Assembly: GCF_044324875.1 (NCBI RefSeq)
Contig: NZ_CP172188.1
Direction: 5' to 3' (one strand)
Source: Escherichia coli
Lineage (GTDB): Bacteria > Pseudomonadota > Gammaproteobacteria > Enterobacterales > Enterobacteriaceae
Length of the DNA: 64,000 nt
A model generated the notes under the pieces. That model searched no databases. It saw only the letters and a list, made by a program, of their open reading frames with translations, and was not told the origin of the DNA. This document shows positions 7,368 through 53,675 of the stretch, one piece after another. A program made the translations under genes and the position numbers. Each line of letters opens with the position of its first letter. The first letter of the stretch is position 1.

Positions 7368-7607
7368 TTCATTAACTCCATACTTTACCATCTTAGCCGC
7401 GAGCGCGGTCCCTAAAACCATTAACTTCACTGCACCGTTCCTTCATGCAATCAAAATGACTTTTATGTTATAAAAATAATCAGCCAAATCAACATGATTT
7501 AGGCCAAATGCGTATTCCGCTCTATTCGATCACGGATTGGCATCGAAGTCCGATCAGCGATTCGCATCCATTCGATCAACCGGGAACTTAACTTTTTCTA
7601 CCGCTTT

Positions 7608-8363
7608 TTAACGCGTTTTTTCGCTGCTTTCCACTACCGGGGGATTTTTCCTCAGTGACTCTCCCTGAAGGACCACTCGGTGTGAGTTATGTACCAGTCT
7701 GTCCAGGATGGCATCTGCTGTTGTTGGGTTCTCCATCAGACCATGCCATTTATCTACCGGGAACTGGCTTACCACTATCGTGCTGCTTTGTCCGTAACGA
7801 TCCTCTATGAGCTCCAGAAGGTCATTACACTGGGCGTTACTTAACTGTTCCAGCCCCAGATCGTCCAGGATTAGAACCTGTATTTTTTGCAACTGTTTCA
7901 GATATTTCAGCCAGCTGCCATCAACACGTCCCTGAGCCAGTTGTTCCAGTAATCGCCCGGTTCTACAGTACCGGACGCTGTGTTTCTGTCGACATGCCTG
8001 TTCGCCCAGCGCATTGGCTATCCAGCTCTTGCCACATCCTGTCGGACCGGTTATCAGCAGGTTTTTCCTGTGGGTTATGTAGTGGCCGTTCAGCAGTTCT
8101 CTCATCTGTTCAGCCCGCAGACCTCTTGAGGCCGGATAGCGCAGCCCTTCCGGTGTTGCCTGGTATTTCAGGCCGGCATTTTTTCTCAACCGTGCCACAC
8201 GGCTGTTTTCCCTGCTCAGAAGCTCGTCATCAACCAGCAGCGTCAGCCTTTCCTCGAACGACAGTTCGTCGTAGGTCTGAGGCGTTTCCCGCTGCCGTAT
8301 CAGGCTCCCGGCCATCGCCGGGAGTTTCAGTTGGGTCAGTTTGTTTAACAGGTTATCACTCAT
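7608..8363 (-). CDS. istB: IS21-family transposition helper ATPase IstB
   Basis: Walker A GPTGCGKS, DExx-like LILDDLG; start set at MSDNLL with AAGGAA Shine-Dalgarno; the ORF track extends upstream to 8606. Confidence 0.85.
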   Translation of the reverse strand: MSDNLLNKLTQLKLPAMAGSLIRQRETPQTYDELSFEERLTLLVDDELLSRENSRVARLRKNAGLKYQATPEGLRYPASRGLRAEQMRELLNGHYITHRKNLLITGPTGCGKSWIANALGEQACRQKHSVRYCRTGRLLEQLAQGRVDGSWLKYLKQLQKIQVLILDDLGLEQLSNAQCNDLLELIEDRYGQSSTIVVSQFPVDKWHGLMENPTTADAILDRLVHNSHRVVLQGESLRKNPPVVESSEKTR

Positions 8364-8379
8364 ACTGTTGTTCCTTCTG

Positions 8380-9915
8380 TCAGTGGTAGTAGCCCGGACC
8401 ACGCAGGTTTTCATGCTCTGAAGCATATGCCGGATGTTGTTCGCCCTGGCGGGATAATGGAAGCTCCAGGTTCTCCCGATGGTGACGCAGCAGATTGTCG
8501 ATAAAGCGTCTGTCAGGGGCGTTATAGTGCAGGGCAACGTAACAGGCCTTTTCCAGCCGTTCCGGGCCGTATTTTTTCTGAAGTGCCAGCAGCCCCAGAA
8601 CTGCACGATAAGCCAGTTCCGGATGGGGTTTTGCCTTCAGCATGGATTCAACCACCCGGCCTGTGGACGGGCCCGTACGTTTTCCCTGCTCGATCAGGCG
8701 TTCCGGTGTCCATGTCCCGTGCTGCCGGTGGCGCTCTGGCATGTGAAGCGGATTGGTTGTGTGTTTATATTCATGTGTGCTGCGCGGATGTTGCGCCACA
8801 CACTGCCCCTTGTGCCAGAGCTGTACCACCGACTGCCCCGCCTTCAGTGACAGACGCTGACCGACCAGTTCGTGTGGAACGGAGTACCAGTGACGGGCAT
8901 ATTCAACGTGGTAGTCAGGGCCAACCTTCACAGCTTTGTATTCCGTGTATTCATAAGGTGCCAGAGGCAGCGGAGAGAGTGCTGGCGCATCCAGTATGCG
9001 GAAGCGTTCTGCACGGGTTTGATTGCCGTACCCCTTCATTGGCCGGTTATTCATGTCTGTCAGTAACTCCCTAAGGCGCGCATTCAGCGCCCTGAGCGTG
9101 TGGAAGGTTTCATTACGGATGCGGGCAAGAAGCCATCGTTCAACGATGAGGACGCCGTTTTCTGCTTTTGGTTTATCTTTAGGTTTGCGTGGTCGGGCCG
9201 GGATGATAACCGTGCCATAGTGCTCAGCCAGTGCCTGATAACTGTCGTTGATGACAGGCTCATATCGATCGGCCTTTTTCACTGCGCTTCTGAGGTTATC
9301 GGGGATGAGCAGCTTCGGTACGCCGCCCAGGAAGGTCAGGCAACGGCTGTGGGCATTTAACCATGACATCATGTCCTGACCTTCGCACGCTTCAACGTAG
9401 GTATAGTTGGACGCCCCCATTACGGCCACGAAGATTGCCACGCGGCGTATCTCACCGGTGTCCGGATTAATAACAGGAACCGTAGGACCACAGAAGTCGA
9501 TAAAAAGCTTTTCGCCGGCACGATGCTCCTGGCGCATGGAGAGACGTCGCGTTTTTTTCCACTCCCGGTAGCAACGGCAGAAGTGCGAGTATCCCATCGC
9601 TTTGTTACCCGCCTGTGCCTTGTATTCCATCCACAACAGTTGCCGCGTCACACCTGGTTTTCTCATTTCCGTATCGAAGTACAACATGTCAGGCATTACA
9701 AGCTCTGATGCAAAGGTGTCTTTGGGCGGAAAAATGAGTTTCTCCAGCGTGTCATGGGATATATCAGCAGGTAATGGCCATGACAGAGAAGAGGCTTTGA
9801 AGCGGGCAAGAACCTCAAAAACGGTTGAGGCGCTGATGTGTAACGTCAGTCCGATACAACGGTTAGTCAGCTTCTTGTCGAACTTGAGCTGAAGGATCTT
9901 AAAACAGGTTTCCAT
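8380..9915 (-). CDS. istA: IS21-family transposase IstA
   Basis: ~511 aa from METCF... (AGGAG Shine-Dalgarno); N-terminal HTH and a DDE-type core; the ORF track extends to 10026. Confidence 0.85.
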   Translation of the reverse strand: METCFKILQLKFDKKLTNRCIGLTLHISASTVFEVLARFKASSLSWPLPADISHDTLEKLIFPPKDTFASELVMPDMLYFDTEMRKPGVTRQLLWMEYKAQAGNKAMGYSHFCRCYREWKKTRRLSMRQEHRAGEKLFIDFCGPTVPVINPDTGEIRRVAIFVAVMGASNYTYVEACEGQDMMSWLNAHSRCLTFLGGVPKLLIPDNLRSAVKKADRYEPVINDSYQALAEHYGTVIIPARPRKPKDKPKAENGVLIVERWLLARIRNETFHTLRALNARLRELLTDMNNRPMKGYGNQTRAERFRILDAPALSPLPLAPYEYTEYKAVKVGPDYHVEYARHWYSVPHELVGQRLSLKAGQSVVQLWHKGQCVAQHPRSTHEYKHTTNPLHMPERHRQHGTWTPERLIEQGKRTGPSTGRVVESMLKAKPHPELAYRAVLGLLALQKKYGPERLEKACYVALHYNAPDRRFIDNLLRHHRENLELPLSRQGEQHPAYASEHENLRGPGYYH

Positions 9916-10307
9916 AGTGCTCCTGGATTTTCTCTTTCTGGACATTGACGTCTCCACTGGTTTAAACACGGCAATGGAGACTGTGGTGAAAAGAGTTAAT
10001 TCCCGGAGTGACTGGCAGGATGCCAATCAATGATCGGAAGCATGCCAAATCGTGATCGATTGTGATGCCAAACTGTGATCGGAGATGGATGCCAAATCAT
10101 GATCGATTCGAATGCCAAACTGCGATCGATTCAGATGCCATTTTGCAGCCAAATTTCTGTCAAAAAATAAAATCCACAAAAAGTGGTTGACACTATTTTG
10201 GAAATCACAAACTGCACATAATCCATCGCGCTAACGGCTCCCGTTGAAGGTTCTTTTGACGATTAACTTTCAGCCGAAGCGCGGTAGGGAGTCATAACGC
10301 CAAAGCA

Positions 10308-11012: not shown

Positions 11013-11348
11013 TCACATTAGTAGCTTTGTTAACTCCCTCAATACCAGGTAGAAGAGTAACAAAAACACTGACGTGGATACCTGCTGAGTTAAAGAAGCA
11101 CTAATGAATTTATTCAATAAATCAATCAGCTTATTAAAAATATTCATCTTTTCGAATCCATTCGATCGGTAAATAACACCCAGCTCACTATCGAGCTGGT
11201 CCACGCCTTAAGATTAATGAAAGTCACTTGTTGACAGTCAATAAATTCCAGGGTGGCGAAAAAACTCTGTCTATACGGATAGTGCTTGCATTTTACTCTT
11301 TCTGCGTGTAGCGTATATACACAGGTTGCACGCACGAATGGAATTATT

Positions 11349-14753: not shown

Positions 14754-15092
14754 TCAGGCTGCTTTTTTATTCAGGTTCCGCTGAGAAATAAATTTTTCAG
14801 CAGTATTGATACGACTTAACTCTTCCTGAACGCGCATGTCATTTTCGACTTCCCACAGGTCTACTGCGGTCTGGAGATTAATCCAAAAATCTACAGAAGT
14901 ATCGAATGCTTTTGCCAGGCGATATGCCATATCCATCGTTAGCTTACGATTATTATTAACAAGAGCACTTACGGTGTTACGATGAACATGAAGTATTTCT
15001 GCTAACTCGTTGATCTTCAGCTCTAACGGCTCCAGGTATTCGTACAGCAGGATATCACCTACGGTCGTCGGTTTTCTGGTTGCCTGTTTCAT
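14754..15092 (-). CDS. higA: HigA-family antitoxin (HTH), second TA pair
   Basis: KPTTVGDILLYEYLEPLELKINELAEILHVHRNTVSALVNNNRKLT...FWINLQTAVDLW matches the HigA antidote pattern. Confidence 0.7.
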   Translation of the reverse strand: MKQATRKPTTVGDILLYEYLEPLELKINELAEILHVHRNTVSALVNNNRKLTMDMAYRLAKAFDTSVDFWINLQTAVDLWEVENDMRVQEELSRINTAEKFISQRNLNKKAA

Positions 15093-15162
15093 TTTTTGCC
15101 CTTACTAGCGTGCGTATTAAGTGGACTCTGGTCAGAACCCGGTCCGTAACCGGGTATCTGTT

Positions 15163-15465
15163 TTAGTATTTGTGAGGGTCGAGATACAAGTCCTCGGCCT
15201 TTCCGTTAACCCACTTAAAAATTAACCTATATTGCTTATTCACCCTTACTGATGAATAGCCATTTAGCTTCCCTGACAGTTCCTCATACCGATTACCTGG
15301 TGGTGATCTTAAATCCTTACAGGTAGTTGCGGCATTGATAATGTCCAACTTCCGTGACAATGTCATATGAATATCAGGAGGTATCTTTCTATGTGGTGTT
15401 GAAAATTCAAAAAAATCATCAAGCCACGCATCCCTGAAATCCTTTATGTTAATTTTTTTGGTCAT
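15163..15465 (-). CDS. higB: HigB-like killer toxin, second TA pair
   Basis: ...DLRSPPGNRYEELSGKLNGYSSVRVNKQYRLIFKWVNGKAEDLYLDPHKY resembles the plasmid-killer (HigB) family; lies immediately upstream of the antitoxin. Confidence 0.65.
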   Translation of the reverse strand: MTKKINIKDFRDAWLDDFFEFSTPHRKIPPDIHMTLSRKLDIINAATTCKDLRSPPGNRYEELSGKLNGYSSVRVNKQYRLIFKWVNGKAEDLYLDPHKY

Positions 15466-16419: not shown

Positions 16420-17183
16420 CTTCAAATAAAACCCTCCTGGCGCGAACAGGTGAATGGCAAACCTCACGCACAGGAAAATTCCAGACCACGGGCTTTGAAA
16501 ACGTGGATAACGCGTTTGCGACGCTAATCAGCAACATTTTTTCTGATATCTTACTGGTGGCCCCCGCGCCGGAAGAAAAACGCTTTGCGTCATTCCTGAA
16601 TCGTCCACCAGCAGAGCGTGTCTATGTGGCCCGTTTCGACAATGCGATCGAGTTTCTTAAAGCAGTTCGTCGCGCAAATGCCGGGCAAGGGAGAAAACCT
16701 GAAAACCAGAACATTAACCGGGATGCTCTCCCCCTGGTCAATATCTCACGCAATATGGATATCAATTATATCAACGATGATCAGCAGATTGACCGCAAAA
16801 AAGTAGCCAGTTTTTGCGAACCGGATACCGGAATGCCTTTAGCAGAACTGGAATACACCCAGGCCATTCTGACGTATGACGTTACGTTAATGGCAACTGA
16901 TAAAGCGACCATGAGTCTGATGTGTAATTCGCTGGGCGCACGGCTTCGCCTGATGACAGGTACACAATTTGAAGCAACCACTCACCTTGTTCGTGTCCCG
17001 GTCCCGCTGATTAGCTCGATACAGGATGCCAAAGAAGTCGGCTTTACGGATGTTTCAGCACCAATTGGAGAAGAGCGTATTTATGCCACACAAGCGCCGA
17101 TAAGTGTGATTGCAGACGTGATCACAGCATGGGAGTTGGACGCAAAACGTATTATTACCGAAACCTCGATATCTATGGGGTGA
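16416..17183 (+). CDS. phage structural / baseplate-associated protein (unknown)
   Basis: Overlapping start/stop coupling within the operon. Confidence 0.4.
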   Translation: MTSNKTLLARTGEWQTSRTGKFQTTGFENVDNAFATLISNIFSDILLVAPAPEEKRFASFLNRPPAERVYVARFDNAIEFLKAVRRANAGQGRKPENQNINRDALPLVNISRNMDINYINDDQQIDRKKVASFCEPDTGMPLAELEYTQAILTYDVTLMATDKATMSLMCNSLGARLRLMTGTQFEATTHLVRVPVPLISSIQDAKEVGFTDVSAPIGEERIYATQAPISVIADVITAWELDAKRIITETSISMG

Positions 17184-17186
17184 TAA

Positions 17187-18167
17187 GTGGCCCAGGAGTT
17201 ACAACAATATTTTCTACAGTCAGTGCTCATTAACGATAACAAAGTGCCACGAGACTGGATTTTTACCGCAGTATATGTAGAAAAAACCAGCCTCAAAGCC
17301 CCTTTGCTAAAACTGGAAATTCATGACGCTACCGGCACCGTAATTGATGACTGGAAAGCCAAATACGGTGCATCGCTGGTGGCTGAAATGGGCGATCCAA
17401 ACGGTAATGCAGGCACTTTTAAAACAGATTTCTTTGTTACGTCTGCAATGCTGGCTGGTGATGTTGTTACCGTTATTGCTGTCAGTGAAGACGTGCGCAG
17501 GTTTAAGATCCCCTCCCCGCGCACAAATTTACATACCAACAAAACACCAGACGCTATATTCAAGGCATATTCCGGCAAGCTTAAAATTACCAGCAGCGTG
17601 CTAAAACGCGCAGTTACATATCATCTGAATGCCGGTGACAAACCGTCAAAAATGCTTTCGGAGATAGCGCGAGACAAAGGTGCATTATGTTGGGTATGCC
17701 GGGGGGAATTTAACTTTTACACCCTGGATGATCTGATGAAGCAAACGCCATCATTTACCTACGAGGGGAATAACCCTAAAGCAGAATACACTTTGTCCAA
17801 AATGCGCCTACTCCAACAGGAACATGCGACAACAGCAAAGAATCAATATCGTTTTGTTGGGTATTCCATGACCGATGGCTACGTCGAATATGGCGATAGC
17901 TCACTCCCAGTGCGTTATATATCCGACTCTGATATGGAAACTCTTCGCAATATGCAGCTGTCTCTCGTCCCCAAAATGGATATAGAAGTCGCAGGCAATC
18001 CGGATATAAAACCGGGAATGGTAATAGAGATTATCGTATACCGCTATGACCAGGAAAACCGCATTGATGAATCAATGCCCCGCAAGCTGATAGTAAAAAA
18101 TGTTGCGCACTTTGAAGACCGCGTAGGCTACACAACACGAATGATATTAGGAGTGCCGAACAAATGA
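17187..18167 (+). CDS. baseplate / tail-associated protein (unknown)
   Basis: 326 aa; stop overlaps the start of the spike-like gene. Confidence 0.4.
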   Translation: MAQELQQYFLQSVLINDNKVPRDWIFTAVYVEKTSLKAPLLKLEIHDATGTVIDDWKAKYGASLVAEMGDPNGNAGTFKTDFFVTSAMLAGDVVTVIAVSEDVRRFKIPSPRTNLHTNKTPDAIFKAYSGKLKITSSVLKRAVTYHLNAGDKPSKMLSEIARDKGALCWVCRGEFNFYTLDDLMKQTPSFTYEGNNPKAEYTLSKMRLLQQEHATTAKNQYRFVGYSMTDGYVEYGDSSLPVRYISDSDMETLRNMQLSLVPKMDIEVAGNPDIKPGMVIEIIVYRYDQENRIDESMPRKLIVKNVAHFEDRVGYTTRMILGVPNK

Positions 18168-18817
18168 AGCGTAGAGCGCAAATTGTTGGAACTGTGCACC
18201 CGGCAGGGCTTATGCGTGCTCAGGTCCGTGTTTTACCAGACTGGAATGGCGTTCCTGATGACGATCTACCCTGGGCAGAATACCTGTTACCCATAGGTAA
18301 CGCGTTTGTACCTACAGTAAAAGGCGACCTGGTATGGGTAGAGTTTCCTTATCTGGATGTTAATGGTCGAATTGATACCAGACGCCCAATGATAGTTGGC
18401 GCAGCTCAGGATGCGCCTGGCGGAGTACCAAACGTCGCGCCGGAGGCGTCAGGCAATGGTAGCGGCTGGACGCCACCAGAAGTAGACGGAGCGCCTCCCC
18501 GCCCGCAATTTTCGGCGACAAAAGATTTCGTGATTCACCGCAACAATGTGCTCGAAGTGCGAACGGCTGGCGGTGGATATGAAATAGCGAATACGGCAGC
18601 AGGCTCAAGGATTGGAATGAATGAATCAGGGCAGATATACATCATTGGTCCGGCTGATGTAGTAGTGAATGCGGGAGGGAGTGTTAACGTCAAATCAGCC
18701 GATAACATCAGCGTTAATGGCAAAAACATTACTGTGACAGCCGACGAAAATATTGATTTCAAGGCTGGAGGCACCTTCCAGGCTATCGCAAGCAACTTTG
18801 ATTTCAAGAAGGGATAG
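18164..18817 (+). CDS. baseplate central spike protein (gpV-like)
   Basis: N-terminal region VRVLPDWNGVPDDDLPWAEYLLPIG... and a Gly-rich C-terminal repeat-like region (ISVNGKNITVTADENIDFKAGG) resembling gpV-type spikes. Confidence 0.5.
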   Translation: MKRRAQIVGTVHPAGLMRAQVRVLPDWNGVPDDDLPWAEYLLPIGNAFVPTVKGDLVWVEFPYLDVNGRIDTRRPMIVGAAQDAPGGVPNVAPEASGNGSGWTPPEVDGAPPRPQFSATKDFVIHRNNVLEVRTAGGGYEIANTAAGSRIGMNESGQIYIIGPADVVVNAGGSVNVKSADNISVNGKNITVTADENIDFKAGGTFQAIASNFDFKKG

Positions 18818-18826
18818 AAAACACAT

Positions 18827-18870
18827 CCAATTGTGTTAGATAATTGAACAGAATTTTCTAACACAATTGG
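18827..18870. promoter_or_regulatory. perfect 14-bp inverted repeat carrying the dispersed motif in both orientations, upstream of rdgC
   Basis: CCAATTGTGTTAGA (18827-18840) ... TCTAACACAATTGG (18857-18870), 16-bp spacer. Confidence 0.45.
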
Positions 18871-18876
18871 TGAAAC

Positions 18877-19782
18877 ATGAGATCAGTCGCTTTCAAAAAC
18901 ATCTTCATCTATCGTCTTTCACGTGAAGTTAACTGGAGTGCCGCAGAAGTATCCGATGCTCTTAGCAAATTCGTGTTTACTCCTTGCGGTTCTCAGGACA
19001 CAGCTAAAGTCGGTTGGACACCTGTTCTTGGTGACAACCTCACCCATGAATACCAGGGTTTTCTGCTAATACAGCATAAGCGAGAAGAAAAAATTCTCCC
19101 CTCGCAGGTGCTCAAGGAAGAGTTGCAGAAAAAAGTCCTGAAACTCGAAGAAGAGCAAGCCCGCAAGCTGAAGAAAACGGAAAGAGACAGTCTTAAAGAT
19201 GAAGTCCTGCATTCCCTTTTGCCTCGCGCGTTCACGAGAAAATCACTCGCCAAAATCCTGATCGACCGCAGCAACCATCTGGTATTCGTTGAGGCAAGCA
19301 GCGCCAAAAAGGCAGAGGACCAGCTGGCTTTATTGCGAAAATCGCTCGGCAGCCTGCCTGTCATTCCATTCACACCACGCGAACCGCTGGAAATTACAAT
19401 GACCGAGTGGTTTAAAAACGGCTTCCCTGCCGGATTTACAGCAGGTGAAGACGCCACATTAAAGGGTCTGCTCGATAATGGTGGTGCCGTTCGCTGCAAC
19501 AAAGTTGATCTACAGTCCGACGAGATTATGTCTCACATTGAGGCGGGGAAAGTAGCTACGACCGTTGCAATTAACTGGATGGAACGCGCGTCGTTCAGAG
19601 TCAACGATGATATGAGTATCAAAGCCCTGACATTCTGTGATGATCTCTATGACCAGAACGACGATATCGACCGGGAGGATGTAGCACAACGATTTGATGC
19701 TGATTTCGTGCTCTTTACGGGCGAATTATCTGCACTGTTTAACGCGCTGGTGGAGGCCATTGGCGGTGAAGCAGAACGATAA
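18877..19782 (+). CDS. rdgC: recombination-associated protein RdgC homologue
   Basis: 301 aa; near-colinear similarity to E. coli RdgC as I recall it ([35 protein letters not shown]..., [26 protein letters not shown]). Confidence 0.85.
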
Positions 19783-19798
19783 TAACCGACAGCTTGTT

Positions 19799-20446
19799 GT
19801 GAGTCTTTGTGATTTTACGGGGGCAATGGTTGCCCCCTGGCTGGAATACGGTGTCGATGCCGCTATCGTCGATCCACAGCACTTATCGACCAGTGACGAG
19901 CGGATGCAATCAGGTGCCGTTCTGACGCGTATTAGTGCGATCATCGATAGCGATGAAGTATACGCTTTTCTTCGTAAGAATTTGCAGCGCATCGTGTTTC
20001 TGGCCGGGTTCCCACCGTGTACTGACCTGGCTGTTTCCGGCGCGCGCTGGTTTTCTGACAAGGCTAATAAAGATCCGGTTTTCCAGTTCAAAGCAATGCA
20101 GGTTGTCTGGCAGTGTTACGACATTGCAAAGATGATTGGTTGCCCGTACATGATTGAAAACCCGGTCAGCCAAATATCGACATTCTGGCGTAAACCTGAT
20201 CACATCTTCCATCCTTACCACTTCACTGCATATTGCAAGGAAGACAATTACACCAAAAAAACATGCCTCTGGAGCGGGCAAGGCTTTGTCATGCCTGATG
20301 CCCTAATGGACGAATCATTAGGCAAGCCAGATAACAGAATCCATACCGCGCCACCTGGACCTGAAAGGGCTAATTTTCGAAGTGCTACTCCGCATGGATT
20401 CGCAAAGGCAGTTTTCGAAGCGAATAAGGGGGTGCTCTATGAGTAA
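19799..20446 (+). CDS. DNA cytosine-C5 methyltransferase-like protein (short; start uncertain)
   Basis: LCDFTGAM (motif I-like), GFPPC (PC catalytic motif-like), MIENPV (ENV-like); candidate starts GTG 19799 or ATG 19826; the frame is open from 19694. Confidence 0.4.
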   Translation: MSLCDFTGAMVAPWLEYGVDAAIVDPQHLSTSDERMQSGAVLTRISAIIDSDEVYAFLRKNLQRIVFLAGFPPCTDLAVSGARWFSDKANKDPVFQFKAMQVVWQCYDIAKMIGCPYMIENPVSQISTFWRKPDHIFHPYHFTAYCKEDNYTKKTCLWSGQGFVMPDALMDESLGKPDNRIHTAPPGPERANFRSATPHGFAKAVFEANKGVLYE

Positions 20447-21344
20447 ATCTATAGCAAGCATAGCCATAGAAAAACAGGATACGATGGCTGAAATTAGCTA
20501 TATGCGCACCATTCGGACTCAGGATGAATATGAGCGCCCGATCTTCAAATGGGTAGGCGGTAAATTCTCAGAGTTGCCTACAGTGCTTGAGCATCTACCA
20601 CACGGCAAGCGGTTAATAGAACCATTCGTTGGTGGCGGTTCCGTATTTACAAATGCAGGATTTCGCCACAACCTGCTTAATGATATTAACGGTGACCTGA
20701 TTAACTTCTATCAGACATTGCAGCGAGAAGGACATTCGCTCGTCACGCTGTCATATAGTTTTTTCCAAAATTACAACAACGCTGACGCTTACCTCGAAGT
20801 GCGTGAGGCATTTAACAGAGGAAAGTATGACCAGCTACATCATGCTGCCGCCTTTTTGTACCTTAATCGGCACTGTTTTAATGGCGTAACGCGGTACAAC
20901 CAAAATGGCGAGTTCAACGTGGGGTATGGCAAATACAAAGCGCCCTACTTCCCACATGCAGAGATGGAGGCATTTTTGGCTGATGACGTACTCAAAAACA
21001 CGTCCTTTGTATCAGGTGACTTTGCTGGCGTCATCGAGGCGGCTGGTGAAGGCGATGTGATTTTTTGCGATCCGCCGTATGAACCGCTGCCGGATACAGA
21101 AGGGTTTACCAGTTATTCAGGAAATAGCTTCCGTTTCGACGAACAGAAACGGCTGGTATCTCTATTGGTGGAAGCCCACCAGCGCGGCGCTAAGGTAGTG
21201 ATAACAAATAGTGGTGCGCCAAACATCCGTGAACTATATGAAGGAAACGGGTTTAAAGTACATCATATGGCAGCCAGACGGTCGGTTTCCTGCAAGGCGT
21301 CAACACGTGTAGTTGCTAACGATATAATTGCAATAATGAAGTAA
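20439..21344 (+). CDS. dam: DNA adenine methyltransferase (Dam-like, N6-adenine)
   Basis: FKWVGGK, EPFVGGGSVF, DPPY motifs; AAGGGGG Shine-Dalgarno; start overlaps the upstream stop. Confidence 0.8.
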   Translation: MSKSIASIAIEKQDTMAEISYMRTIRTQDEYERPIFKWVGGKFSELPTVLEHLPHGKRLIEPFVGGGSVFTNAGFRHNLLNDINGDLINFYQTLQREGHSLVTLSYSFFQNYNNADAYLEVREAFNRGKYDQLHHAAAFLYLNRHCFNGVTRYNQNGEFNVGYGKYKAPYFPHAEMEAFLADDVLKNTSFVSGDFAGVIEAAGEGDVIFCDPPYEPLPDTEGFTSYSGNSFRFDEQKRLVSLLVEAHQRGAKVVITNSGAPNIRELYEGNGFKVHHMAARRSVSCKASTRVVANDIIAIMK

Positions 21345-21372
21345 AAAACGCCGCAGTAGCGGCGTTTACTTT
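21343..21372. terminator. bidirectional rho-independent terminator (mainly serving glnS on the minus strand)
   Basis: aacgccgc-agta-gcggcgtt with T-runs on the minus-strand side. Confidence 0.55.
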
Positions 21373-21392
21373 TTCATGTGGCGAAATACCTA

Positions 21393-23054
21393 TTAACCTA
21401 ACTTCGCCCAGGTATCACGCAGCCCAACGGTGCGGTTAAATACCGGTTTTTCCGCCGTAGAATGGCGGCTATCGAGGCAGAAGTAACCTTCACGCTCAAA
21501 CTGGAATGCTTTACCCGCAACCGCATCTTTCAGCGACGGTTCAGCAAAGCCCTGTTTGATCACCAGCGATTCCGGGTTAATCACCGACAGGAAATCATCC
21601 GCAGCACCTGGGTTAGGCACGCTGAACAGACGATCGTACAGGCGGATTTCAACCGGCAGCGCATGTGCCGCGCTCACCCAGTGAATAACGCCTTTCACTT
21701 TACGACCATCTGCCGGATCTTTGCTTAAGGTGTCGGCGTCATAAGTACAGAAGATGGTGGTGATATTGCCTTCGGCATCTTTCTCCACGCGTTCAGCCTT
21801 AATGACGTAAGCATTACGCAGACGCACTTCTTTACCCAGCACCAGACGTTTGTACTGCTTGTTAGCTTCTTCGCGGAAATCGGCGCGGTCGATCCAAATC
21901 TCACCGCTAAACGGCACCTGACGGCTACCCATTTCCGGTTTGTTCGGATGGTTCGGCATGGTGACCATTTCGCCTTCGCCCTGGTAGTTTTCGATAACCA
22001 GTTTCACCGGATCGATAACCGCCATTGCGCGCGGCGCATTTTCGTTGAGATCTTCACGGATGCAGGATTCCAGCGACGCCATCTCAATGGTGTTGTCCTG
22101 CTTGGTCACGCCGATGCGTTTGCAGAACTCACGAATAGAAGCCGCAGTGTAACCACGACGACGCAGACCGGAAATGGTCGGCATACGCGGGTCATCCCAG
22201 CCTTCAACGTGTTTGTCGGTCACCAGCAGGTTCAGCTTACGCTTGGACATCACGGTGTATTCCAGATTCAGGCGCGAGAATTCGTACTGGCGCGGGTGAA
22301 CAGGAATGGTGATGTTGTCCAGCACCCAGTCGTACAGGCGACGGTTGTCCTGGAACTCAAGCGTACACAGAGAGTGCGTAATACCTTCCAGCGCATCGCT
22401 GATGCAATGGGTGAAGTCGTACATCGGGTAGATGCACCACTTGTTGCCAGTCTGGTGGTGTTCAGCAAATTTAATGCGGTACAGCACCGGATCGCGCATT
22501 ACGATAAATGGCGACGCCATGTCGATTTTCGCACGCAGGCAGGCTTTACCTTCTTCAAAACCACCGGCACGCATTTTTTCGAACAGCGCCAGGTTCTCTT
22601 CAACGCTGCGATCGCGGTACGGGCTGTTTTTACCCGGCTGCGTCAGGGTGCCGCGGTATTCGCGGATCTGTTCCGGCGTCAGTTCGTCAACATACGCCAG
22701 GCCTTTGTTGATCAGTTCAACAGCATAGGCGTGGAGCTGATCAAAATAATCGGAGGAGTAACGGATGTTGCCAGACCAGTGAAAACCTAACCATTCAACG
22801 TCGTTTTTAATCGACTCGACGTACTCGATATCTTCTTTTACCGGGTTAGTGTCGTCGAAACGCAGGTTGCACTGGCCTTTATAGTCCTGGGCGATCCCGA
22901 AGTTCAGGCAGATAGATTTCGCATGACCAATATGCAGATAGCCATTCGGTTCCGGCGGGAAACGGGTATGTACTGTGGTGTGCTTACCACTGGCCAGATC
23001 TTCATCGATGATCTGACGAATAAAGTTAGTCGGGCGGGCTTCTGCCTCACTCAT
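21393..23054 (-). CDS. glnS: glutamine--tRNA ligase (GlnRS)
   Basis: 553 aa, colinear with E. coli GlnS over the whole length as I recall it (HIGH motif, VMSKR motif); C-terminus ...WAKLG. Confidence 0.95.
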
Positions 23055-23322: not shown

Positions 23323-23610
23323 TTATTTTGCTTCCTCAGACTCCGCTAACATGAGGATAGCATGGCGGATCATATTCAATTTGCTACGATTATGCTTTTT
23401 ACTTAACGCATCAAGTACCTGGTACTCGTATTCATTGAAACCAACACGAATAGATTTAAAATCACGTGGAGCGTCCTTATCGAGCACTTTGTTGTCTTCT
23501 GGTTGCTCACCCGGCACCAAATCAGCCTTACTTGCAAAATCCTCAATTCGGCGTTCAAGATCGGGGTCTTTTACTTCGGGGGCTTTTACCGATTTACGAG
23601 GCTTAATCAC
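23323..23610 (-). CDS. small partition protein (ParG-like, second gene of the ParA operon)
   Basis: 95 aa, directly downstream of and overlapping the Walker-type parA; C-terminus ...LNMIRHAILMLAESEE consistent with a ribbon-helix-helix-type centromere binder. Confidence 0.6.
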   Translation of the reverse strand: MIKPRKSVKAPEVKDPDLERRIEDFASKADLVPGEQPEDNKVLDKDAPRDFKSIRVGFNEYEYQVLDALSKKHNRSKLNMIRHAILMLAESEEAK

Positions 23611-24244
23611 TTAATAACTCCTTAACCAACATCTGGATTTCACCTTTAGCTTTCCCGTTGTCCATCTCAACAACGCCCTTCCCTTCAGCCATGCAATCGC
23701 GGTAAACCTTACGATCACGAATGATGGTTTTCAGCAACTTCAGTTGCGGATATTCAGCCAGGTACTCTTTGGCCTCATTGGTTTCATTCACAACCGGATT
23801 GGATGGGGCCATTGTTAAGACTGCGAACGCCTTAATGCTAGGATTAGGCATCAGGTCCAAAGCCTCTTCAAACACTTCAACAAAGTGTGCCAGCGTGTCT
23901 AAATCTGGTTGAGATGGTCTGAATGGGACCAACACAATATCTGCAGCGGTTATGCCTGTACGCATCTCTTTGCTATCGCGCCCGGCTGTATCAACAACTA
24001 CAAATTCATAACGCTTATCCAGATCGAGAAGTGTTTCTCGAATATTACCAAACTTCTGGACACAATGAATTACAGGAGAAACCTCTGCCGTGTTACGGTC
24101 AGCGGCCCAGCGGGCAGCTGTTCCTTGCTTGTCTGCATCTAGTAACACTACATCCTTATTTTCGCGGGCAAGCTCCGCACAGATGTTTACGCTTGTGGTT
24201 GATTTTCCACAGCCACCTTTTTGGCTGACTACCAATATAATCAT
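23603..24244 (-). CDS. parA: ParA-family partition ATPase (small, type Ib-like)
   Basis: KGGCGKST deviant Walker A; 213 aa. Confidence 0.8.
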   Translation of the reverse strand: MIILVVSQKGGCGKSTTSVNICAELARENKDVVLLDADKQGTAARWAADRNTAEVSPVIHCVQKFGNIRETLLDLDKRYEFVVVDTAGRDSKEMRTGITAADIVLVPFRPSQPDLDTLAHFVEVFEEALDLMPNPSIKAFAVLTMAPSNPVVNETNEAKEYLAEYPQLKLLKTIIRDRKVYRDCMAEGKGVVEMDNGKAKGEIQMLVKELLSD

Positions 24245-24269
24245 ATCCGTTCCTCGGTGTTATTTTGGT

Positions 24270-24480
24270 ATCAAACTGGTTCCAAACAGAAGCCTTATTG
24301 ATGCGGTTTTGGCTCTATAGTGGAGTCATTATGCTTTGCAAAAGTATAACACTAATCATTCTAAATTTGCCCTCTGTTGCATCCTGTTTAACACGAAATC
24401 AGCACTAAATTGGAACCAGATACAAAGCAGCACCATAACAACACCGTTTTGGTACTAAAAGAGCACCAAACTAGAACCAT
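24270..24480. promoter_or_regulatory. parA upstream region with repeated TGGTTCCAA / TTGGAACCA and GCACCAAA motifs
   Basis: Short repeats shared with the element at 23225-23289. Confidence 0.35.
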
Positions 24481-24488
24481 AACGGTAT

Positions 24489-24516
24489 AAAAAAGGCTGC
24501 AAATTGCAGCCTTTGA
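24489..24516 (-). terminator. rho-independent terminator after parR
   Basis: Perfect palindrome GGCTGCAAATTGCAGCC flanked by A6 (plus) / T6 (minus). Confidence 0.55.
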
Positions 24517-24529
24517 AGATGTAGATTGG

Positions 24530-24901
24530 TTAATCAGGGAGTGAGTTTGCCAAATTCTGAGCAGAGCGGCTTTTCGGAACGCCTGGTTTTTTTACATCCT
24601 CTGAGACAGAGGTTTTTCCTTCAGTAGGTTCCCGAACTTCATGCGAAATTTCAAGAAACGAAACCAGCATTTTTCTGATCACTTCAGAGCTATTATCACC
24701 GGATAAAAGCGATGCCAACATGGGAGGTAATCTGCTATCAACCTCGCCAAGAGCGATACCTGCAAGCATCGCAGTGCGCACCATATCATTGCGATCACTT
24801 AATGGATGGGCCTCAATTTTTGCCACAGCATATTGCTCACTGGCGTAAGCGTTAAGATCTGAACGAAGATAAAACATTATTTTTCGACGTTCTTTAGACA
24901 T
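24530..24901 (-). CDS. parR: ParR/StbB-like centromere-binding protein
   Basis: 123 aa directly downstream of parM; similar in size and N-terminal character to plasmid R1 ParR. Confidence 0.6.
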   Translation of the reverse strand: MSKERRKIMFYLRSDLNAYASEQYAVAKIEAHPLSDRNDMVRTAMLAGIALGEVDSRLPPMLASLLSGDNSSEVIRKMLVSFLEISHEVREPTEGKTSVSEDVKKPGVPKSRSAQNLANSLPD

Positions 24902-24911
24902 GGCAACCTCA

Positions 24912-25871
24912 TCAACCGATAGATTTTAGACCATATACAAGAGCAAGTTGTGGATCATCAGCAACGAAAAACCTATCGTCACGAATGTTTACCTGCTCAC
25001 GGATAGCATCAGCAACAAGCGGCGCGCCGCCACCAATTACCATAACATGTGTGTATCCTTTGAAATCACTGATCACATCCAGTACGCGTGTACGGAGTCG
25101 CTCTATGCTTGACGAAATGGCTTTCTTAACATCATCAATAGCAGACGGATCGTTAATATTGTCGGTCAGATAATCCTCATCATCTCGATTAATGATTAAT
25201 TGATCGACGTTATAATTAGAGGTTTCGGTATTAGCTTTTGCAAGTGCCTGTCTGACCTCTTTAGTTACCAGCGAAACGCCGAGATTAGAATCGCCAAATA
25301 CGCGAGAAACGGCGGTCATTTGCCCGGCAACCATCGACACATCCAGAGTAGTCCCGCCAAGATCAACAATAAGCACAGAATGCGCTGGCACAAGGCTGTC
25401 GCACAGACCGATCCCTGCGGGTATTGACTCCGGGCGCACAGTCACTTTTTTGATAGTAAAAACCTGACCTTTGTTAAGGGTGACTGGTCGCATCAGGCTG
25501 GCCTTTTTCCGCTCAATATTTTTCATGTTGTATTGTGCGTCGTCGTCATAAAACTCTGCCAGTGGCAACGTGACTACTATTTCCACTTCTTGAGGCTCAA
25601 TGCCACTTGTAAGCAGGGCATGATGAACAGCAAGCACATTAAGCGGGCTGTATTGCCATTCAACGTTATTCGTTGGCAGAGCATCCGGCGAGATCAAGTC
25701 ATATGAATATTTTTCGTCATCAATGATGTAGTTAAACGTTTTTCCTGCGCCAAATGTGGCGGACCATCCACGTTTAAAACTGTTCGGGCAGATATGGGTT
25801 CGAGTTTCCCCGTCTTGTTCCCACAGCATTTTGATATTGGTAGAACCATCGTCGATAAAAATGCGCATCAT
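24912..25871 (-). CDS. parM: ParM/StbA actin-like plasmid segregation ATPase
   Basis: MMRIFIDDGSTNIKM..., WQY..NV.AVHHALLTSG, ESIPAG, IVDLGGTTLDVS, GYTHVMVIGGGA: colinear with R1 ParM as I recall it; start at MMRIF. Confidence 0.85.
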   Translation of the reverse strand: MMRIFIDDGSTNIKMLWEQDGETRTHICPNSFKRGWSATFGAGKTFNYIIDDEKYSYDLISPDALPTNNVEWQYSPLNVLAVHHALLTSGIEPQEVEIVVTLPLAEFYDDDAQYNMKNIERKKASLMRPVTLNKGQVFTIKKVTVRPESIPAGIGLCDSLVPAHSVLIVDLGGTTLDVSMVAGQMTAVSRVFGDSNLGVSLVTKEVRQALAKANTETSNYNVDQLIINRDDEDYLTDNINDPSAIDDVKKAISSSIERLRTRVLDVISDFKGYTHVMVIGGGAPLVADAIREQVNIRDDRFFVADDPQLALVYGLKSIG

Positions 25872-25964
25872 ATTGCTCCACTTCTGAGACACATTTGAGA
25901 AAGAATTGAATCTTATATGAGAAAACAAAATAAAACCAGAAGTTGAGAGAGCAAAAAGCACCAG

Positions 25965-26032
25965 ATTTGAGACAAACCAGAGACAAACCAGAGACAAACT
26001 AGAGACACACTAGAGACAAGTATGAGAAACAA
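25965..26032. repeat. parC-like centromere iterons upstream of parM
   Basis: Five to six tandem ~11-bp units GAGACAAACCA / GAGACAAACTA / GAGACACACTA / GAGACAAGTAT. Confidence 0.6.
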
Positions 26033-47925: not shown

Positions 47926-48372
47926 ATGGCTGAAAATTTAAAGGCAAGAGATGGTAACCGCCTGTATAAGGCGCAATTGCTTTCCTACTATTATTCACGC
48001 CGCGCTGAGTCGGCGATCGGCAAAGGTGCGCGTTTTGTTATCTCTAAGGCGTATTGGTGCAAATCTAGTCTGGTAACTGCTAATGGTGCAGGAGGCTGGA
48101 ATATAGCGGACATTCCACTCGATTTTAAATTGAGTAACGCTCAACAGTTTGCTGTGTCCGATCTGATATTGTCCAGTGTGGATGGGATTATCACTATCAA
48201 TGCAGCCTTCCCTCAAGAAAGAATGCCGGATAACACGCCTTACGACTTTAACACGCTTGTGCTTGTGGATGCTGAGGAACAGGCTTTTGCTGTGCTTTGC
48301 ACCCAGCAAGACACCCTCTATAAAGGTAAACGTTACAGTATTCTCATGACAATCGAGCAAGTTGAGGGTTGA
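47926..48372 (+). CDS. hypothetical tail protein
   Basis: 148 aa; stop overlaps the tail-fibre start. Confidence 0.35.
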   Translation: MAENLKARDGNRLYKAQLLSYYYSRRAESAIGKGARFVISKAYWCKSSLVTANGAGGWNIADIPLDFKLSNAQQFAVSDLILSSVDGIITINAAFPQERMPDNTPYDFNTLVLVDAEEQAFAVLCTQQDTLYKGKRYSILMTIEQVEG

Positions 48373-51257
48373 TTATGGGTGCTGATAAAACGAACAACAT
48401 AATGACACTATCCTCTGGTGTCTCACAGCCGTTGCTTGCTGATGTTCAATATTTCGAACTCTATAGTAGTTCGGCTCTTAACAGAAAACTTAAAAATATT
48501 GTTTTGCCGGGCTTTTACTGTGGATTTGAACCGGTTCCCGGCACAGGGTTGAGTGTCCGTATAACTTCTGAAAACTCAGAAGGTAAAGGGGCTGCTTCAG
48601 TAGATGTAAATAATGTTCAGATATCCGTTCAGCAAATAGAAGATGTGACTGTCTCGGTAAAGGCAGGGGCTACCAACATTATTGTGCTGGAAGCCAATTT
48701 TGAACATGGTGTAAAAACGACACAGGTAGATAGCGCATCTTCTGTCAGTGCTGCAAGAATTTACGCGCGTACGGACAATACTATTGGGCAGAATCAAATT
48801 GAATTATGTCGAGTTATCGTGCCTAGCGGCGCAACGGCTGTGACTAAAGAAATGATTGTGCTTAAATACCGGGTTAACCGTGCTGTTGGTGTCGAATTCT
48901 CTAATGAAATAAGCAGTACAGAAGAAAGAAAAGCGGCTACACCTCTGGCTGTCAAAACTCTCCATGATTTGGTTGATACAAAAGCCCCGATCAACAGCCC
49001 GAATCTGACAGGAACGCCAACAACACCAACAGCGCCACAGGGGACTAATAATACCCAGATCGCAAGCACGGCTTTCGTTATGGCCGCGATTGCCGCACTT
49101 GTAGATTCGTCACCTGATGCACTTAACACTCTGAACGAACTGGCCGCCGCGCTTGGTAATGATCCGAACTTTTCCGCGACAGTGACTCGCCTGATTGGAG
49201 AAAAAGTTGCCAAAGATGGCGACACCATGACAGGTAAACTTAATCTGCCGCAGACCTCTGCATTCGGCATCAATACCAACAACAGACTGGGGGGGAACTC
49301 TCTGACGCTGGGCGATCACGATACCGGAATTAAACAGGAAGGAGACGGCGTATTGTCCGTGTTCGCCAACGGCCAGCGTGTGTTCCTTTTCACGGAAAGA
49401 AGTATTACCTCATTAAAAGAGCTTCTGATAGGGGATGCACGTTATAGCACCGGTGGTGATGTGTATGGCAGTCAGTGGGGAGACGGTTGGTTGAGTTCCT
49501 GGTTAAGTGCTCGCTTTGCAGAGTGTGCCAACGCCAGCCATAACCACCCTTGGAGCCAGATTACCGACGTACCAGCAGCCAGCCTCACTCAGAGCGGCAT
49601 TGTACAACTTAGTAGTGCCATCAACAGCACTTCTGAAACATTAGCTGCAACTCCAAAAGCGGTTAAAGCTGCATACGATCTAGCAGCCGGAAAGGCACCA
49701 TCCAGTCATACACACCCCTGGAATCAGATCACTGGTGTGCCAACAGCTTCATTGACAGCGAAAGGCATCACTCAGCTCAGTAGTGCTACTAACAGCACGT
49801 CTGAAGTGCTGGCCGCCACACCAAAAGCTGTCAAGGCTGCATATGACCTGGCTAACGGGAAGTATACAGCCCAGGATGCAACCACGACACAAAAAGGGAT
49901 AGTTCAGCTCAGTAGCGACACCAACAGCACTTCTGAAACATTAGCTGCAACTCCAAAAGCGGTTAAAGCTGCATACGATCTAGCAGCCGGAAAGGCACCA
50001 TCCAGTCATACACACCCCTGGAATCAGATCACTGGTGTGCCAACAGCTTCATTGACAGCGAAAGGCATCACTCAGCTCAGTAGTGCTACTAACAGCACGT
50101 CTGAAGTGCTGGCCGCTACACCGAAAGCGGTTAAAGCTGCATACGATCTAGCAGCCGGAAAGGCACCATCCAATCATATACATCCCTGGAATCAGATCAC
50201 TGGTGTGCCAACAGCTTCATTGACAGCGAAAGGCATCACTCAGCTCAGTAGTGCCACTAACAGCACGTCTGAAGTGCTGGCCGCTACACCGAAAGCGGTT
50301 AAAGCTGCATACGATCTAGCAGCCGGAAAGGCACCATCCAGTCATACACACCCCTGGAATCAGATCACTGGTGTGCCAACAGCTTCATTGACAGCGAAAG
50401 GCATCACTCAGCTCAGTAGTGCTACTAACAGCACGTCTGAAGTGCTGGCCGCTACACCGAAAGCGGTTAAAGCTGCATACGATCTAGCAGCCGGAAAGGC
50501 ACCATCCAATCATATACATCCCTGGAATCAGATCACTGGTGTGCCAACAGCTTCATTGACAGCGAAAGGCATCACTCAGCTCAGTAGTGCCACTAACAGC
50601 ACGTCTGAAGTGCTGGCCGCTACACCGAAAGCGGTTAAAGCTGCATACGATCTAGCAGCCGGAAAGGCACCATCCAATCATATACATCCCTGGAATCAGA
50701 TCACTGGTGTGCCAACAGCTTCATTGACAGCGAAAGGCATCACTCAGCTCAGTAGTGCCACTAACAGCACGTCTGAAGTGCTGGCCGCTACACCGAAAGC
50801 TGTCAAGGCTGCATACGATCTGGCAAACGGAAAACAACCGGCAGATGCCACGCTCACTGCTCTGGCAGGACTTGCCACTGCAGCAGATCGGTTGCCTTAT
50901 TTTACCGGAGCAGACCGCGCAGCGCTGACAACCCTTACAGCTATTGGTCGCGCTATTATCGCTAAGGGCAGTATAAAAGATGTCCTCAATTACCTTGGTT
51001 TAGGAGAAGGCTCGGCGCTACCCGTTGGTGTGCCTGTTCCATGGCCCACCGCCACACCGCCAGCAGGCTGGTTAAAGTGCGACGGGCGCGCCTTTACAAA
51101 AGAACAATATCCTGTTCTGGCCAGAGTCTACCCGACCCTCCGTCTTCCCGATTTACGCGGTGAGTTTATCCGTGGATGGGACGACGGGCGAAAAGTTGAT
51201 ACAGGGCGCGATTGCTTTCACGGCAAGGGGTACAAGTTTTTCTCATTACGGAGGTAA
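48369..51257 (+). CDS. tail fibre protein with variable C-terminus encoded in the invertible segment
   Basis: 962 aa; about seven tandem ~60-aa repeats containing ATPKAVKAAYDLA...H.HPW.QITGVP (classic fibre repeat); the last ~85 aa lie inside the invertible segment. Confidence 0.7.
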   Translation: MIMGADKTNNIMTLSSGVSQPLLADVQYFELYSSSALNRKLKNIVLPGFYCGFEPVPGTGLSVRITSENSEGKGAASVDVNNVQISVQQIEDVTVSVKAGATNIIVLEANFEHGVKTTQVDSASSVSAARIYARTDNTIGQNQIELCRVIVPSGATAVTKEMIVLKYRVNRAVGVEFSNEISSTEERKAATPLAVKTLHDLVDTKAPINSPNLTGTPTTPTAPQGTNNTQIASTAFVMAAIAALVDSSPDALNTLNELAAALGNDPNFSATVTRLIGEKVAKDGDTMTGKLNLPQTSAFGINTNNRLGGNSLTLGDHDTGIKQEGDGVLSVFANGQRVFLFTERSITSLKELLIGDARYSTGGDVYGSQWGDGWLSSWLSARFAECANASHNHPWSQITDVPAASLTQSGIVQLSSAINSTSETLAATPKAVKAAYDLAAGKAPSSHTHPWNQITGVPTASLTAKGITQLSSATNSTSEVLAATPKAVKAAYDLANGKYTAQDATTTQKGIVQLSSDTNSTSETLAATPKAVKAAYDLAAGKAPSSHTHPWNQITGVPTASLTAKGITQLSSATNSTSEVLAATPKAVKAAYDLAAGKAPSNHIHPWNQITGVPTASLTAKGITQLSSATNSTSEVLAATPKAVKAAYDLAAGKAPSSHTHPWNQITGVPTASLTAKGITQLSSATNSTSEVLAATPKAVKAAYDLAAGKAPSNHIHPWNQITGVPTASLTAKGITQLSSATNSTSEVLAATPKAVKAAYDLAAGKAPSNHIHPWNQITGVPTASLTAKGITQLSSATNSTSEVLAATPKAVKAAYDLANGKQPADATLTALAGLATAADRLPYFTGADRAALTTLTAIGRAIIAKGSIKDVLNYLGLGEGSALPVGVPVPWPTATPPAGWLKCDGRAFTKEQYPVLARVYPTLRLPDLRGEFIRGWDDGRKVDTGRDCFHGKGYKFFSLRR
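49540..50830 (+). repeat. tandem ~180-bp in-frame repeats in the tail-fibre gene
   Basis: Near-identical units with few substitutions (for example SSHTHPW versus SNHIHPW). Confidence 0.8.
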
Positions 51258-53036: not shown

Positions 53037-53102
53037 CGTTTATCTCTCAAATCCTCCCCACATTATCTCAGTACTTTAACCACTCAAAAGGGAGTATTTT
53101 TA

Positions 53103-53675
53103 ATGCTGATTGGCTACATACGTGTGTCAACAAATGACCAAAACACAGATTTGCAACGCAATGCATTAATGTGCGCAGGATGTGAACAGATTTTTGAGGA
53201 CAAAATGAGCGGAACCAAGTCGGAACGACCAGGCCTGAAACGCGCTTTAAAGTGCCTTAAAAGAGGGGATACATTGGTGGTCTGGAAGCTGGATCGGTTG
53301 GGTAGAAGAATGAAACACCTCATTGCTCTCACAGAAGAGCTACGCGCAAAAGGTGTCAATTTTCGCAGTCTGACGGATTCAATCGATACCAGCACTCCGA
53401 TGGGAAGGTTCTTTTTTCATATGATGGGTGCACTGGCAGAAATGGAGCGTGAACTGATAGTTGAGCGCACGCTGGCAGGACTGGCTGCTGCGCGATCACA
53501 AGGAAGAGTTGGAGGACGTCGCCCGAAACTGACGAAGGAGCAGCATGAGCAGATCGCAAGATTGCTCCAGAAAGGGTATGACAGAAAGCGGCTGGCAATT
53601 ATCTATGATATTGGACTGTCAACGATCTACCGCTATCACCCTGTTGGGACTGTCATAACGCAACCTGAAATGTAA
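53103..53675 (+). CDS. serine DNA invertase (Hin/Gin/Cin/Pin family)
   Basis: MLIGYIRVSTNDQNTDLQ..., RPGLKRAL, LVVWKLDRLGR, C-terminal HTH; 190 aa. Confidence 0.85.
   Translation: MLIGYIRVSTNDQNTDLQRNALMCAGCEQIFEDKMSGTKSERPGLKRALKCLKRGDTLVVWKLDRLGRRMKHLIALTEELRAKGVNFRSLTDSIDTSTPMGRFFFHMMGALAEMERELIVERTLAGLAAARSQGRVGGRRPKLTKEQHEQIARLLQKGYDRKRLAIIYDIGLSTIYRYHPVGTVITQPEM

Follow-up and report, generated by a model that had tools for sequence, protein, structure and literature searches.

A D6-like phage-plasmid of Escherichia coli carries a full-length rdgC gene at the head of a predicted methyltransferase operon

Canonical RdgC is a toroidal dimer that binds double-stranded and single-stranded DNA without sequence specificity and blocks strand exchange by RecA, RecFOR-dependent loading, and the cleavage of LexA (PMC11077077, PMC2965237, PMC1885664). 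The closest described relatives of the gene analysed here are orf65 of Escherichia phage D6 and hrdC of phage P1, both of which already carry an RdgC-family label in GenBank (ASR76356 for D6 orf65; AAQ14040 for hrdC, in the P1 genome record AF234172). The GenBank note on P1 hrdC describes it as "possibly involved in replication, recombination...". The P1 record also annotates an operator of the C1 repressor, Odmt (formerly Op68), in front of hrdC and dmt, in the arrangement Odmt-Pdmt-uhr-hrdC-dmt. During P1vir infection, hrdC is induced along with dmt (bioRxiv 10.64898/2025.12.28.696737). The gene was non-essential for the lytic growth of P1 in a genome-wide CRISPRi screen (PMC10695390), and any benefit of an RdgC to the phage is therefore conditional. 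A more distant relative, RexA of phage lambda, resembles RdgC in the fold of its centre and base domains and in its non-specific DNA binding; the two were matched by fold only, and sequence-based fold prediction failed (PMC11077077). A literature search for experiments on any phage RdgC, or for an anti-defence role of such a protein, found nothing relevant.

The stretch of DNA analysed here, called the window, is 64,000 nucleotides long and belongs to E. coli contig NZ_CP172188.1. Phage D6 is collinear with the window in blocks, with some rearrangements and insertions, and its DNA is 95.6% identical to window positions 17000-22000. The window is a D6-like phage-plasmid of the P1 family; D6 itself is a P1-like plasmid prophage. 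The rdgC gene is found on 85 plasmids of E. coli and Salmonella in PLSDB, which among those listed are 78-97 kb long, and dozens of plasmid copies are labelled rdgC by the NCBI PGAP pipeline. Among complete E. coli genomes, 98 of 5,426 contain the gene at a coverage of at least 80%. In protein searches, homologues with a length of 301 aa form an unbroken series that extends to identities as low as 59%, and many are encoded on contigs of about 90 kb. The first-pass annotation of this locus had called the gene phage-plasmid-borne, and the identity to D6 and the 85 PLSDB plasmids bear this out. The gene is already known and not new, because it is named or annotated in P1 (hrdC), D6 (orf65), and the plasmid records.

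Table 1. Features of the window discussed in the text
Feature	Position	Strand	Remarks
IS21-family insertion (IstB-like ATPase and rve/Mu-type transposase)	7608-10026	-	
P1-type late box followed by a -10 hexamer	11211-11229	-	
HigB/RelE-type toxin (100 aa) and HigA-type antitoxin (112 aa)	14754-15465	-	between tail-gene blocks, D6 orf70-71
Predicted sigma-70 promoter, TAGAAA-18 nt-GATAAT	18815-18844	+	consensus scan, 9/12 matches
Perfect 14-bp inverted repeat CCAATTGTGTTAGA	18827-18840, complement 18857-18870		in the 59-bp gap, 7 bp 5' of the ATG
Putative operator, upstream half-site ATTGTGTTAGATAATT	18830-18845	+	overlaps the predicted -10 hexamer
Putative operator, downstream half-site ATTGTGTTAGAAAATT	18852-18867	-	spans the predicted transcription start; ends 9 nt before the ATG
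rdgC, equivalent of D6 orf65 and P1 hrdC	18877-19782	+	ATG-to-stop ORF, 301 aa
Small methyltransferase-like gene, 226 aa, counterpart of D6 orf64	19766-20446	+	GTG start, PHROG 757
Dam-family N6-adenine DNA methyltransferase (D12), 301 aa	20439-21344	+	PF02086 191.8 bits, TIGR00571 249 bits
GC-rich hairpin, 9 pairs, terminator-like on both strands	21346-21367		between dam and convergent glnS
glnS, full-length glutaminyl-tRNA synthetase	21393-23054	-	553 aa, catalytic and both anticodon-binding domains
Two adjoining partition/stability modules	23603-25997	-	arrangement as in D6 orf58-61
Second divalent pair of half-sites	27895-27932		
Copies of half-site ATTGTGTTAGAWAATT	3037, 18830/18852, 27895/27917, 29834, 38652, 61815, 63013		
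Distal part of the tail-fibre gene to the Cin-like invertase	48369-53675		unaligned with D6
Cin-like invertase	52974-53675		

Several other parts of the window can be placed against the D6 genome. The IS21-family insertion lies within a stretch that is absent from D6 (collinearity gap 7509-10148), where the GC content rises to 0.54. One of the two partition modules consists of a ParA-like ATPase of 213 aa and a small partner; in the other, a StbA/ParM-like actin-type protein of 361 aa is paired with StbB. The protein encoded by the tail-fibre gene (962 aa) has a collar domain as well as tail-fibre repeats. The unaligned region from the distal part of this gene to the invertase suggests a host-range cassette different from that of D6. 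The glnS gene, which is convergent with the genes downstream of rdgC, is annotated in D6 as well (orf62).

The rdgC reading frame of the window encodes a genuine, intact, full-length RdgC-family protein. It matches Pfam profile PF04381 from position 3 to 298 of 298 with a score of 344.7 bits (E 5.8e-103; cut-off 25 bits), and its score of 381.4 bits against the NCBIfam RdgC equivalog NF001462 is above the 330-bit cut-off. The protein also matches PHROG 724. Residues 5-301 align with the structure of E. coli RdgC (2OWL, E 2e-110), and the structure of Pseudomonas aeruginosa RdgC (2OWY) aligns with E 6e-61. The description of the product as a full-length RdgC-like protein in the first-pass annotation is thus exact. 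Against NF001460, the best-scoring of the NCBIfam RdgC equivalogs, the protein reaches 408.3 bits and remains under the 501-bit cut-off; this, together with the 59% identity to E. coli RdgC, makes it a member of the family and not a copy of the host gene. The pairwise identities of the window protein are 95.3% to D6 orf65, 59.2% to E. coli RdgC, 54.5% to the RdgC of Salmonella phage SP069, 52.2% to P1 HrdC, and 40% to P. aeruginosa RdgC.

At the level of DNA, the chromosomal rdgC of E. coli matches the phage gene only at nucleotides 207-358, with about 72% identity; the phage gene is therefore old and was not captured recently from this species. The dN/dS ratio is 0.14 relative to D6 (dN 0.031, dS 0.22) and 0.12-0.14 among three deeper relatives, from which it follows that rdgC is maintained by purifying selection. 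It is scarcely credible that rdgC is a decaying passenger without current function, even though P1 hrdC was dispensable in the CRISPRi screen (PMC10695390): the reading frame is uninterrupted, with a dN/dS of about 0.14, and the gene has kept its locus in relatives with as little as 59% protein identity, in the 98 complete E. coli genomes, and on the 85 PLSDB plasmids. In a rough neighbour-joining tree, computed without support values, the D6-like proteins form one clade. In the same unsupported tree, P1 HrdC falls outside the D6 clade, together with the RdgC of E. coli and the copy of a 9NA-like phage; the P1 and D6 lineages may not carry simple rdgC orthologues.

The rdgC gene is the first gene of what is, to judge from the spacing of its genes, a tightly packed operon of three: rdgC, the small methyltransferase-like gene, and dam. 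The start of the second gene overlaps the end of rdgC by 17 nt and is preceded by a GGAGG ribosome-binding site 10 nt 5' of the GTG codon, and dam in turn overlaps the second gene by 8 nt. These overlaps with their ribosome-binding sites, and the hairpin that probably ends the operon downstream of dam, are the basis for the operon assignment. The claim of the first-pass annotation that rdgC lies just upstream of methyltransferase genes agrees with the PHROG 757 match of the overlapping reading frame and with the D12 Dam gene that follows it.

The 226-aa product matches PHROG 757, "DNA methyltransferase", with E 8.5e-79, and its D6 counterpart is annotated as "putative DNA-cytosine methylase"; searches with Pfam and NCBIfam profiles gave no match. 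Inspection by eye finds the C5-methyltransferase-like motifs FTG, GFPPC, and IENP in a protein that is too short for a normal target-recognition domain. In P1, Dmt is a fused enzyme, whereas in the window the methyltransferase is split: Dam shares 69% identity with the C-terminal half of P1 Dmt, and the unrelated small methyltransferase-like gene stands in place of the C5 half. The possibility that this gene is a detached C5 half of Dmt was rejected, as BLASTP detected no similarity of its product to P1 Dmt or to the fused Dmt of the Raoultella relative.

Homologues of the P1 tail and baseplate genes 7, 24, 6, and 5 are located 5' of rdgC. The order of genes 7-24-6-5, a 59-bp gap, rdgC, and the methyltransferase gene or genes is kept in plasmid contigs of Raoultella, Enterobacter hormaechei, and Klebsiella michiganensis, the RdgC proteins of which are 74%, 68%, and 62% identical to that of the window. 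Two of these three contigs have a fused, P1-like C5 and D12 methyltransferase. The P1 arrangement differs in that it includes uhr, whereas the window is without uhr and its rdgC follows the homologue of baseplate gene 5 instead of upfC/uhr. D6 orf65 and P1 HrdC are otherwise like the window protein: they belong to the same family, are 301 aa long, are encoded directly 5' of a Dam-type methyltransferase and behind a repressor operator, which is putative in the window, and are carried by plasmid prophages of the P1 family.

The pairing with methyltransferase genes could be taken to mean that RdgC is a partner of the methyltransferases, a non-specific clamp co-produced with the two enzymes. Until phage DNA that is newly replicated or has just been injected is methylated, the clamp would shield or organise it against attack by nucleases, restriction enzymes, or RecBCD. 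Such a role would fit the position of rdgC directly 5' of the methyltransferase gene or genes in P1, P7, D6, and four divergent D6-like plasmids, in most of which the reading frames overlap, and Vibrio phage VHML and Pseudomonas phage LKA5 likewise have methyltransferase genes at a distance of no more than about 3 kb from rdgC. However, none is found among the annotated genes 3-4 kb to either side of rdgC in Salmonella phage SP069 (9NA-like) or Klebsiella phage Kpn BU9, and the linkage within the P1 and D6 family could reflect inherited gene order alone. To our knowledge, no biochemical link between RdgC and methylation has been described. A protective partnership of this kind appears improbable.

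The 59-bp gap in front of rdgC contains a predicted promoter and a repeated motif with the features of a divalent operator. The promoter is weak (9/12 matches, 18-nt spacer), and its -35 hexamer shares bases with the stop codon of the gene-5 homologue. The -10 hexamer GATAAT does not vary among five relatives in which the DNA of rdgC is only 62-93% identical to that of the window. The 16-mer half-site of the perfect inverted repeat in the gap is ATTGTGTTAGAWAATT. With up to three mismatches allowed, this half-site occurs nine times in the window as compared with 1.8 expected, and none of 100 shuffled sequences reached nine. The inverted repeat and the excess of half-sites support the earlier suggestion that rdgC lies downstream of a probable operator. 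The core of the downstream half-site, TTTTCTAACA, is invariant in five of five aligned relatives while its flanks vary; the upstream half-site is kept in D6, whereas it is not conserved in the relatives from Klebsiella, Raoultella, and Enterobacter.

The half-sites of the second divalent pair in the window are offset by 22 nt, as are those before rdgC. By collinearity with D6, the other half-sites in the window adjoin ref, the icd/antirepressor genes, repL, and orf52, and in the D6 genome the motif is also present just 5' of c1 and lpa. The motif thereby recurs at the equivalents of P1 C1 operators, which are located at ref, c4-icd-ant, kilA-repL, lpa, and c1 in addition to Odmt. A search of the window for the P1 C1 operator consensus, ATTGCTCTAATAAATTT, with up to three mismatches found no match, and by our own comparison the half-site ATTGTGTTAGAWAATT is alike to that consensus at 11 of 17 positions. 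The putative operator of the window is of the D6 type, whereas that of P1 has a different consensus. A promoter that appears to be embedded in a divalent repressor operator points to an early, repressor-controlled operon as in P1, and it is by analogy to P1 that we infer this control for the window.

Other explanations of the motif and the repeat were considered. The half-site is not the box of a late promoter activated by Lpa: the -22 box of P1 late promoters is AAGTGACTT, and the motif is found 5' of D6 lpa and c1. The only P1-type late box followed by a -10 hexamer in the window is the one listed in Table 1. The inverted repeat was also rejected as a terminator of the upstream tail genes, as it has no T-run and was not called by the terminator scan. 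As RNA, the repeat is predicted to fold strongly, with -24.2 kcal/mol (z = -4.9) and would pair the first bases of the ribosome-binding site on a read-through transcript. The 5' arm of the repeat is not kept in distant relatives, and the RNA hairpin is probably incidental to the divalent operator. The terminator scan found no terminator 3' of the gene-5 homologue, and late read-through from the tail and baseplate genes into rdgC is therefore possible.

The predicted regulation also bears on a role like that of lambda RexA, in the decision between lysis and lysogeny or in phage exclusion and not in recombination. RexA, which has the RdgC fold, biases the lambda switch to lysis (PMC11077077), and for some lambdoid phages with rdgC beside cI a RexA-like role has been suggested (PMC12315714). 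However, the identity of 59% over the full length to E. coli RdgC marks the window protein as a true RdgC, recognisable by sequence, and not a distant relative by fold. The RdgC ring also uses the tip domain (PMC11077077), and the basic finger and gate residues are kept in the window protein. RexA is expressed together with cI in lysogens and pairs with RexB; by contrast, the window gene appears to be repressor-controlled and thus off in lysogens, and no rexB-like partner adjoins it. A RexA-like role is therefore unlikely.

The residues on which the activity of RdgC depends are largely kept in the window protein. Briggs et al. (2010) mutated ten residues of E. coli RdgC (PMC2965237), of which nine are the same in the window. 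All four residues of the basic fingertip, R97, K98, K100, and K101, which are needed for loading onto circular DNA (PMC2965237), are identical, as are R118 and F120 of the gate interface. At the horseshoe interface E218, H222, and K227 are kept, and Q212 is replaced by valine. In P. aeruginosa RdgC, the basic residues R4, K70, R81, R122, K146, R198, R208, and R252 line the central pore and are needed to bind double-stranded DNA (PMC1885664); seven of these eight positions are lysine or arginine in the window protein, and that of R252 is alanine. The net charge of the protein is similar to that of E. coli RdgC. In contrast to the chromosomal E. coli gene, the copy in the window resides on a mobile element, under putative control by a phage repressor, and has the changes Q212V and R252A.

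In E. coli RdgC, Q212 participates in a hydrogen-bond network with E218 and K227 at the horseshoe interface (PMC2965237). The E. coli variant Q212A binds oligonucleotides like the wild type but fails completely in the priA synthetic-lethality assay (PMC2965237). Since the window protein has valine at this position, a canonical function should not be assumed. In 96 close full-length alleles of the D6 type, the residue is valine in 93 and isoleucine in three, whereas the more distant D6-like plasmids and P1, including its HrdC, retain glutamine. Among 149 diverse RdgC proteins, position 212 is glutamine in 92, leucine, valine, or isoleucine in 22, glutamate in 11, and histidine in nine. As the position varies across the family, the Q212V change may be neutral.

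It is conceivable that the protein with Val/Ile-212 has an altered function and acts as a poison subunit, either by joining host RdgC in mixed rings or by building rings that are inactive in vivo although they bind DNA. Derepression of the operon would then disable control by RdgC instead of adding to it and raise RecA- and Ref-dependent recombination. The fixation of Val or Ile in 96 of 96 close alleles, set against the glutamine of P1 and distant plasmids, speaks for such a function, and E. coli Q212A provides a precedent for a protein that binds DNA normally and is null in vivo. Mixed dimers are conceivable, as R118 and F120 match those of the host protein and the two proteins share 84% identity in their finger and gate segment (E. 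coli residues 101-125). A chromosomal rdgC is present in every E. coli host, and relatives of the window carry ref. Against this, an aliphatic residue may be tolerated at a position that is L, V, or I in 22 of 149 RdgCs, and P1 HrdC keeps glutamine in the same operon context. We regard a poison subunit as unlikely. The bolder proposal that the protein of the D6 clade is a separation-of-function RdgC, which would co-assemble or compete with host RdgC and lift the restraint on RecA during lytic growth, is very doubtful; if true, it would be the opposite of the obvious, RecA-limiting reading.

The RecA-limiting reading is the one that we consider probable: the gene of the window is the rdgC of a D6-like phage-plasmid, first in an operon that is probably under C1-type control, and its product would act like E. 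coli RdgC. The operon would probably be driven by the promoter inside the divalent operator for a D6-type C1 repressor. In the plasmid prophage it would be silent, and its expression would begin early after induction or infection, as with Odmt-Pdmt-uhr-hrdC-dmt of P1, so that RdgC would be made early in lytic development together with the two methyltransferases. Most likely, the protein would form a ring-shaped dimer, be loaded by its basic finger, and grip DNA without sequence preference. Its occupation of duplex DNA would limit RecA strand exchange, RecFOR-dependent loading of RecA, and SOS signalling while the phage DNA is replicated. The same phage family carries ref, an enhancer of RecA-dependent recombination, and a limitation of RecA by the phage RdgC fits awkwardly with its presence.

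RdgC homologues in other phages have different surroundings. They were found in 293 of the phage records searched, mostly of Vibrio and Pseudomonas phages. The PHROG 724 proteins that were compared, from Vibrio phages, F116-like Pseudomonas phages, 9NA-like Salmonella phages, and ICP1, are 23-57% identical to the window protein, and none of them is encoded on a P1-type plasmid prophage. An early or DNA-metabolism region holds the gene in VHML, where the cI/cII region is its neighbour, and in LKA5, where ssb and an exonuclease gene are; the neighbours in SP069 and Kpn BU9 are unannotated.

The first-pass annotation had proposed that a mobile-element copy of rdgC could modulate host recombination or protect replication intermediates. 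The proposal is reasonable as a reading of the sequence, and it largely repeats the GenBank note on P1 hrdC. The annotation had named conservation in all relatives as a known structural component as a ground for its refutation; this ground does not apply, as the gene is not a structural one. The gene is, however, conserved and named in P1, P7, and D6, and the novelty implied by the annotation is therefore absent. What is mildly new is the Q212V/I substitution throughout the clade and, perhaps, the D6-type architecture of operator and promoter before the operon.

The finding is correct and ordinary, and as it stands it matters little. What value remains lies in the apparent lack of any characterised RdgC from a phage, even though the gene occurs in 293 phage records. 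D6-type plasmids bring it into about 2% of complete E. coli genomes, and P1-type plasmids into more. An operon of rdgC and methyltransferase genes under probable repressor control, together with the fixed Q212V change, may provide a handle on how plasmid prophages tune the RecA activity of their hosts.
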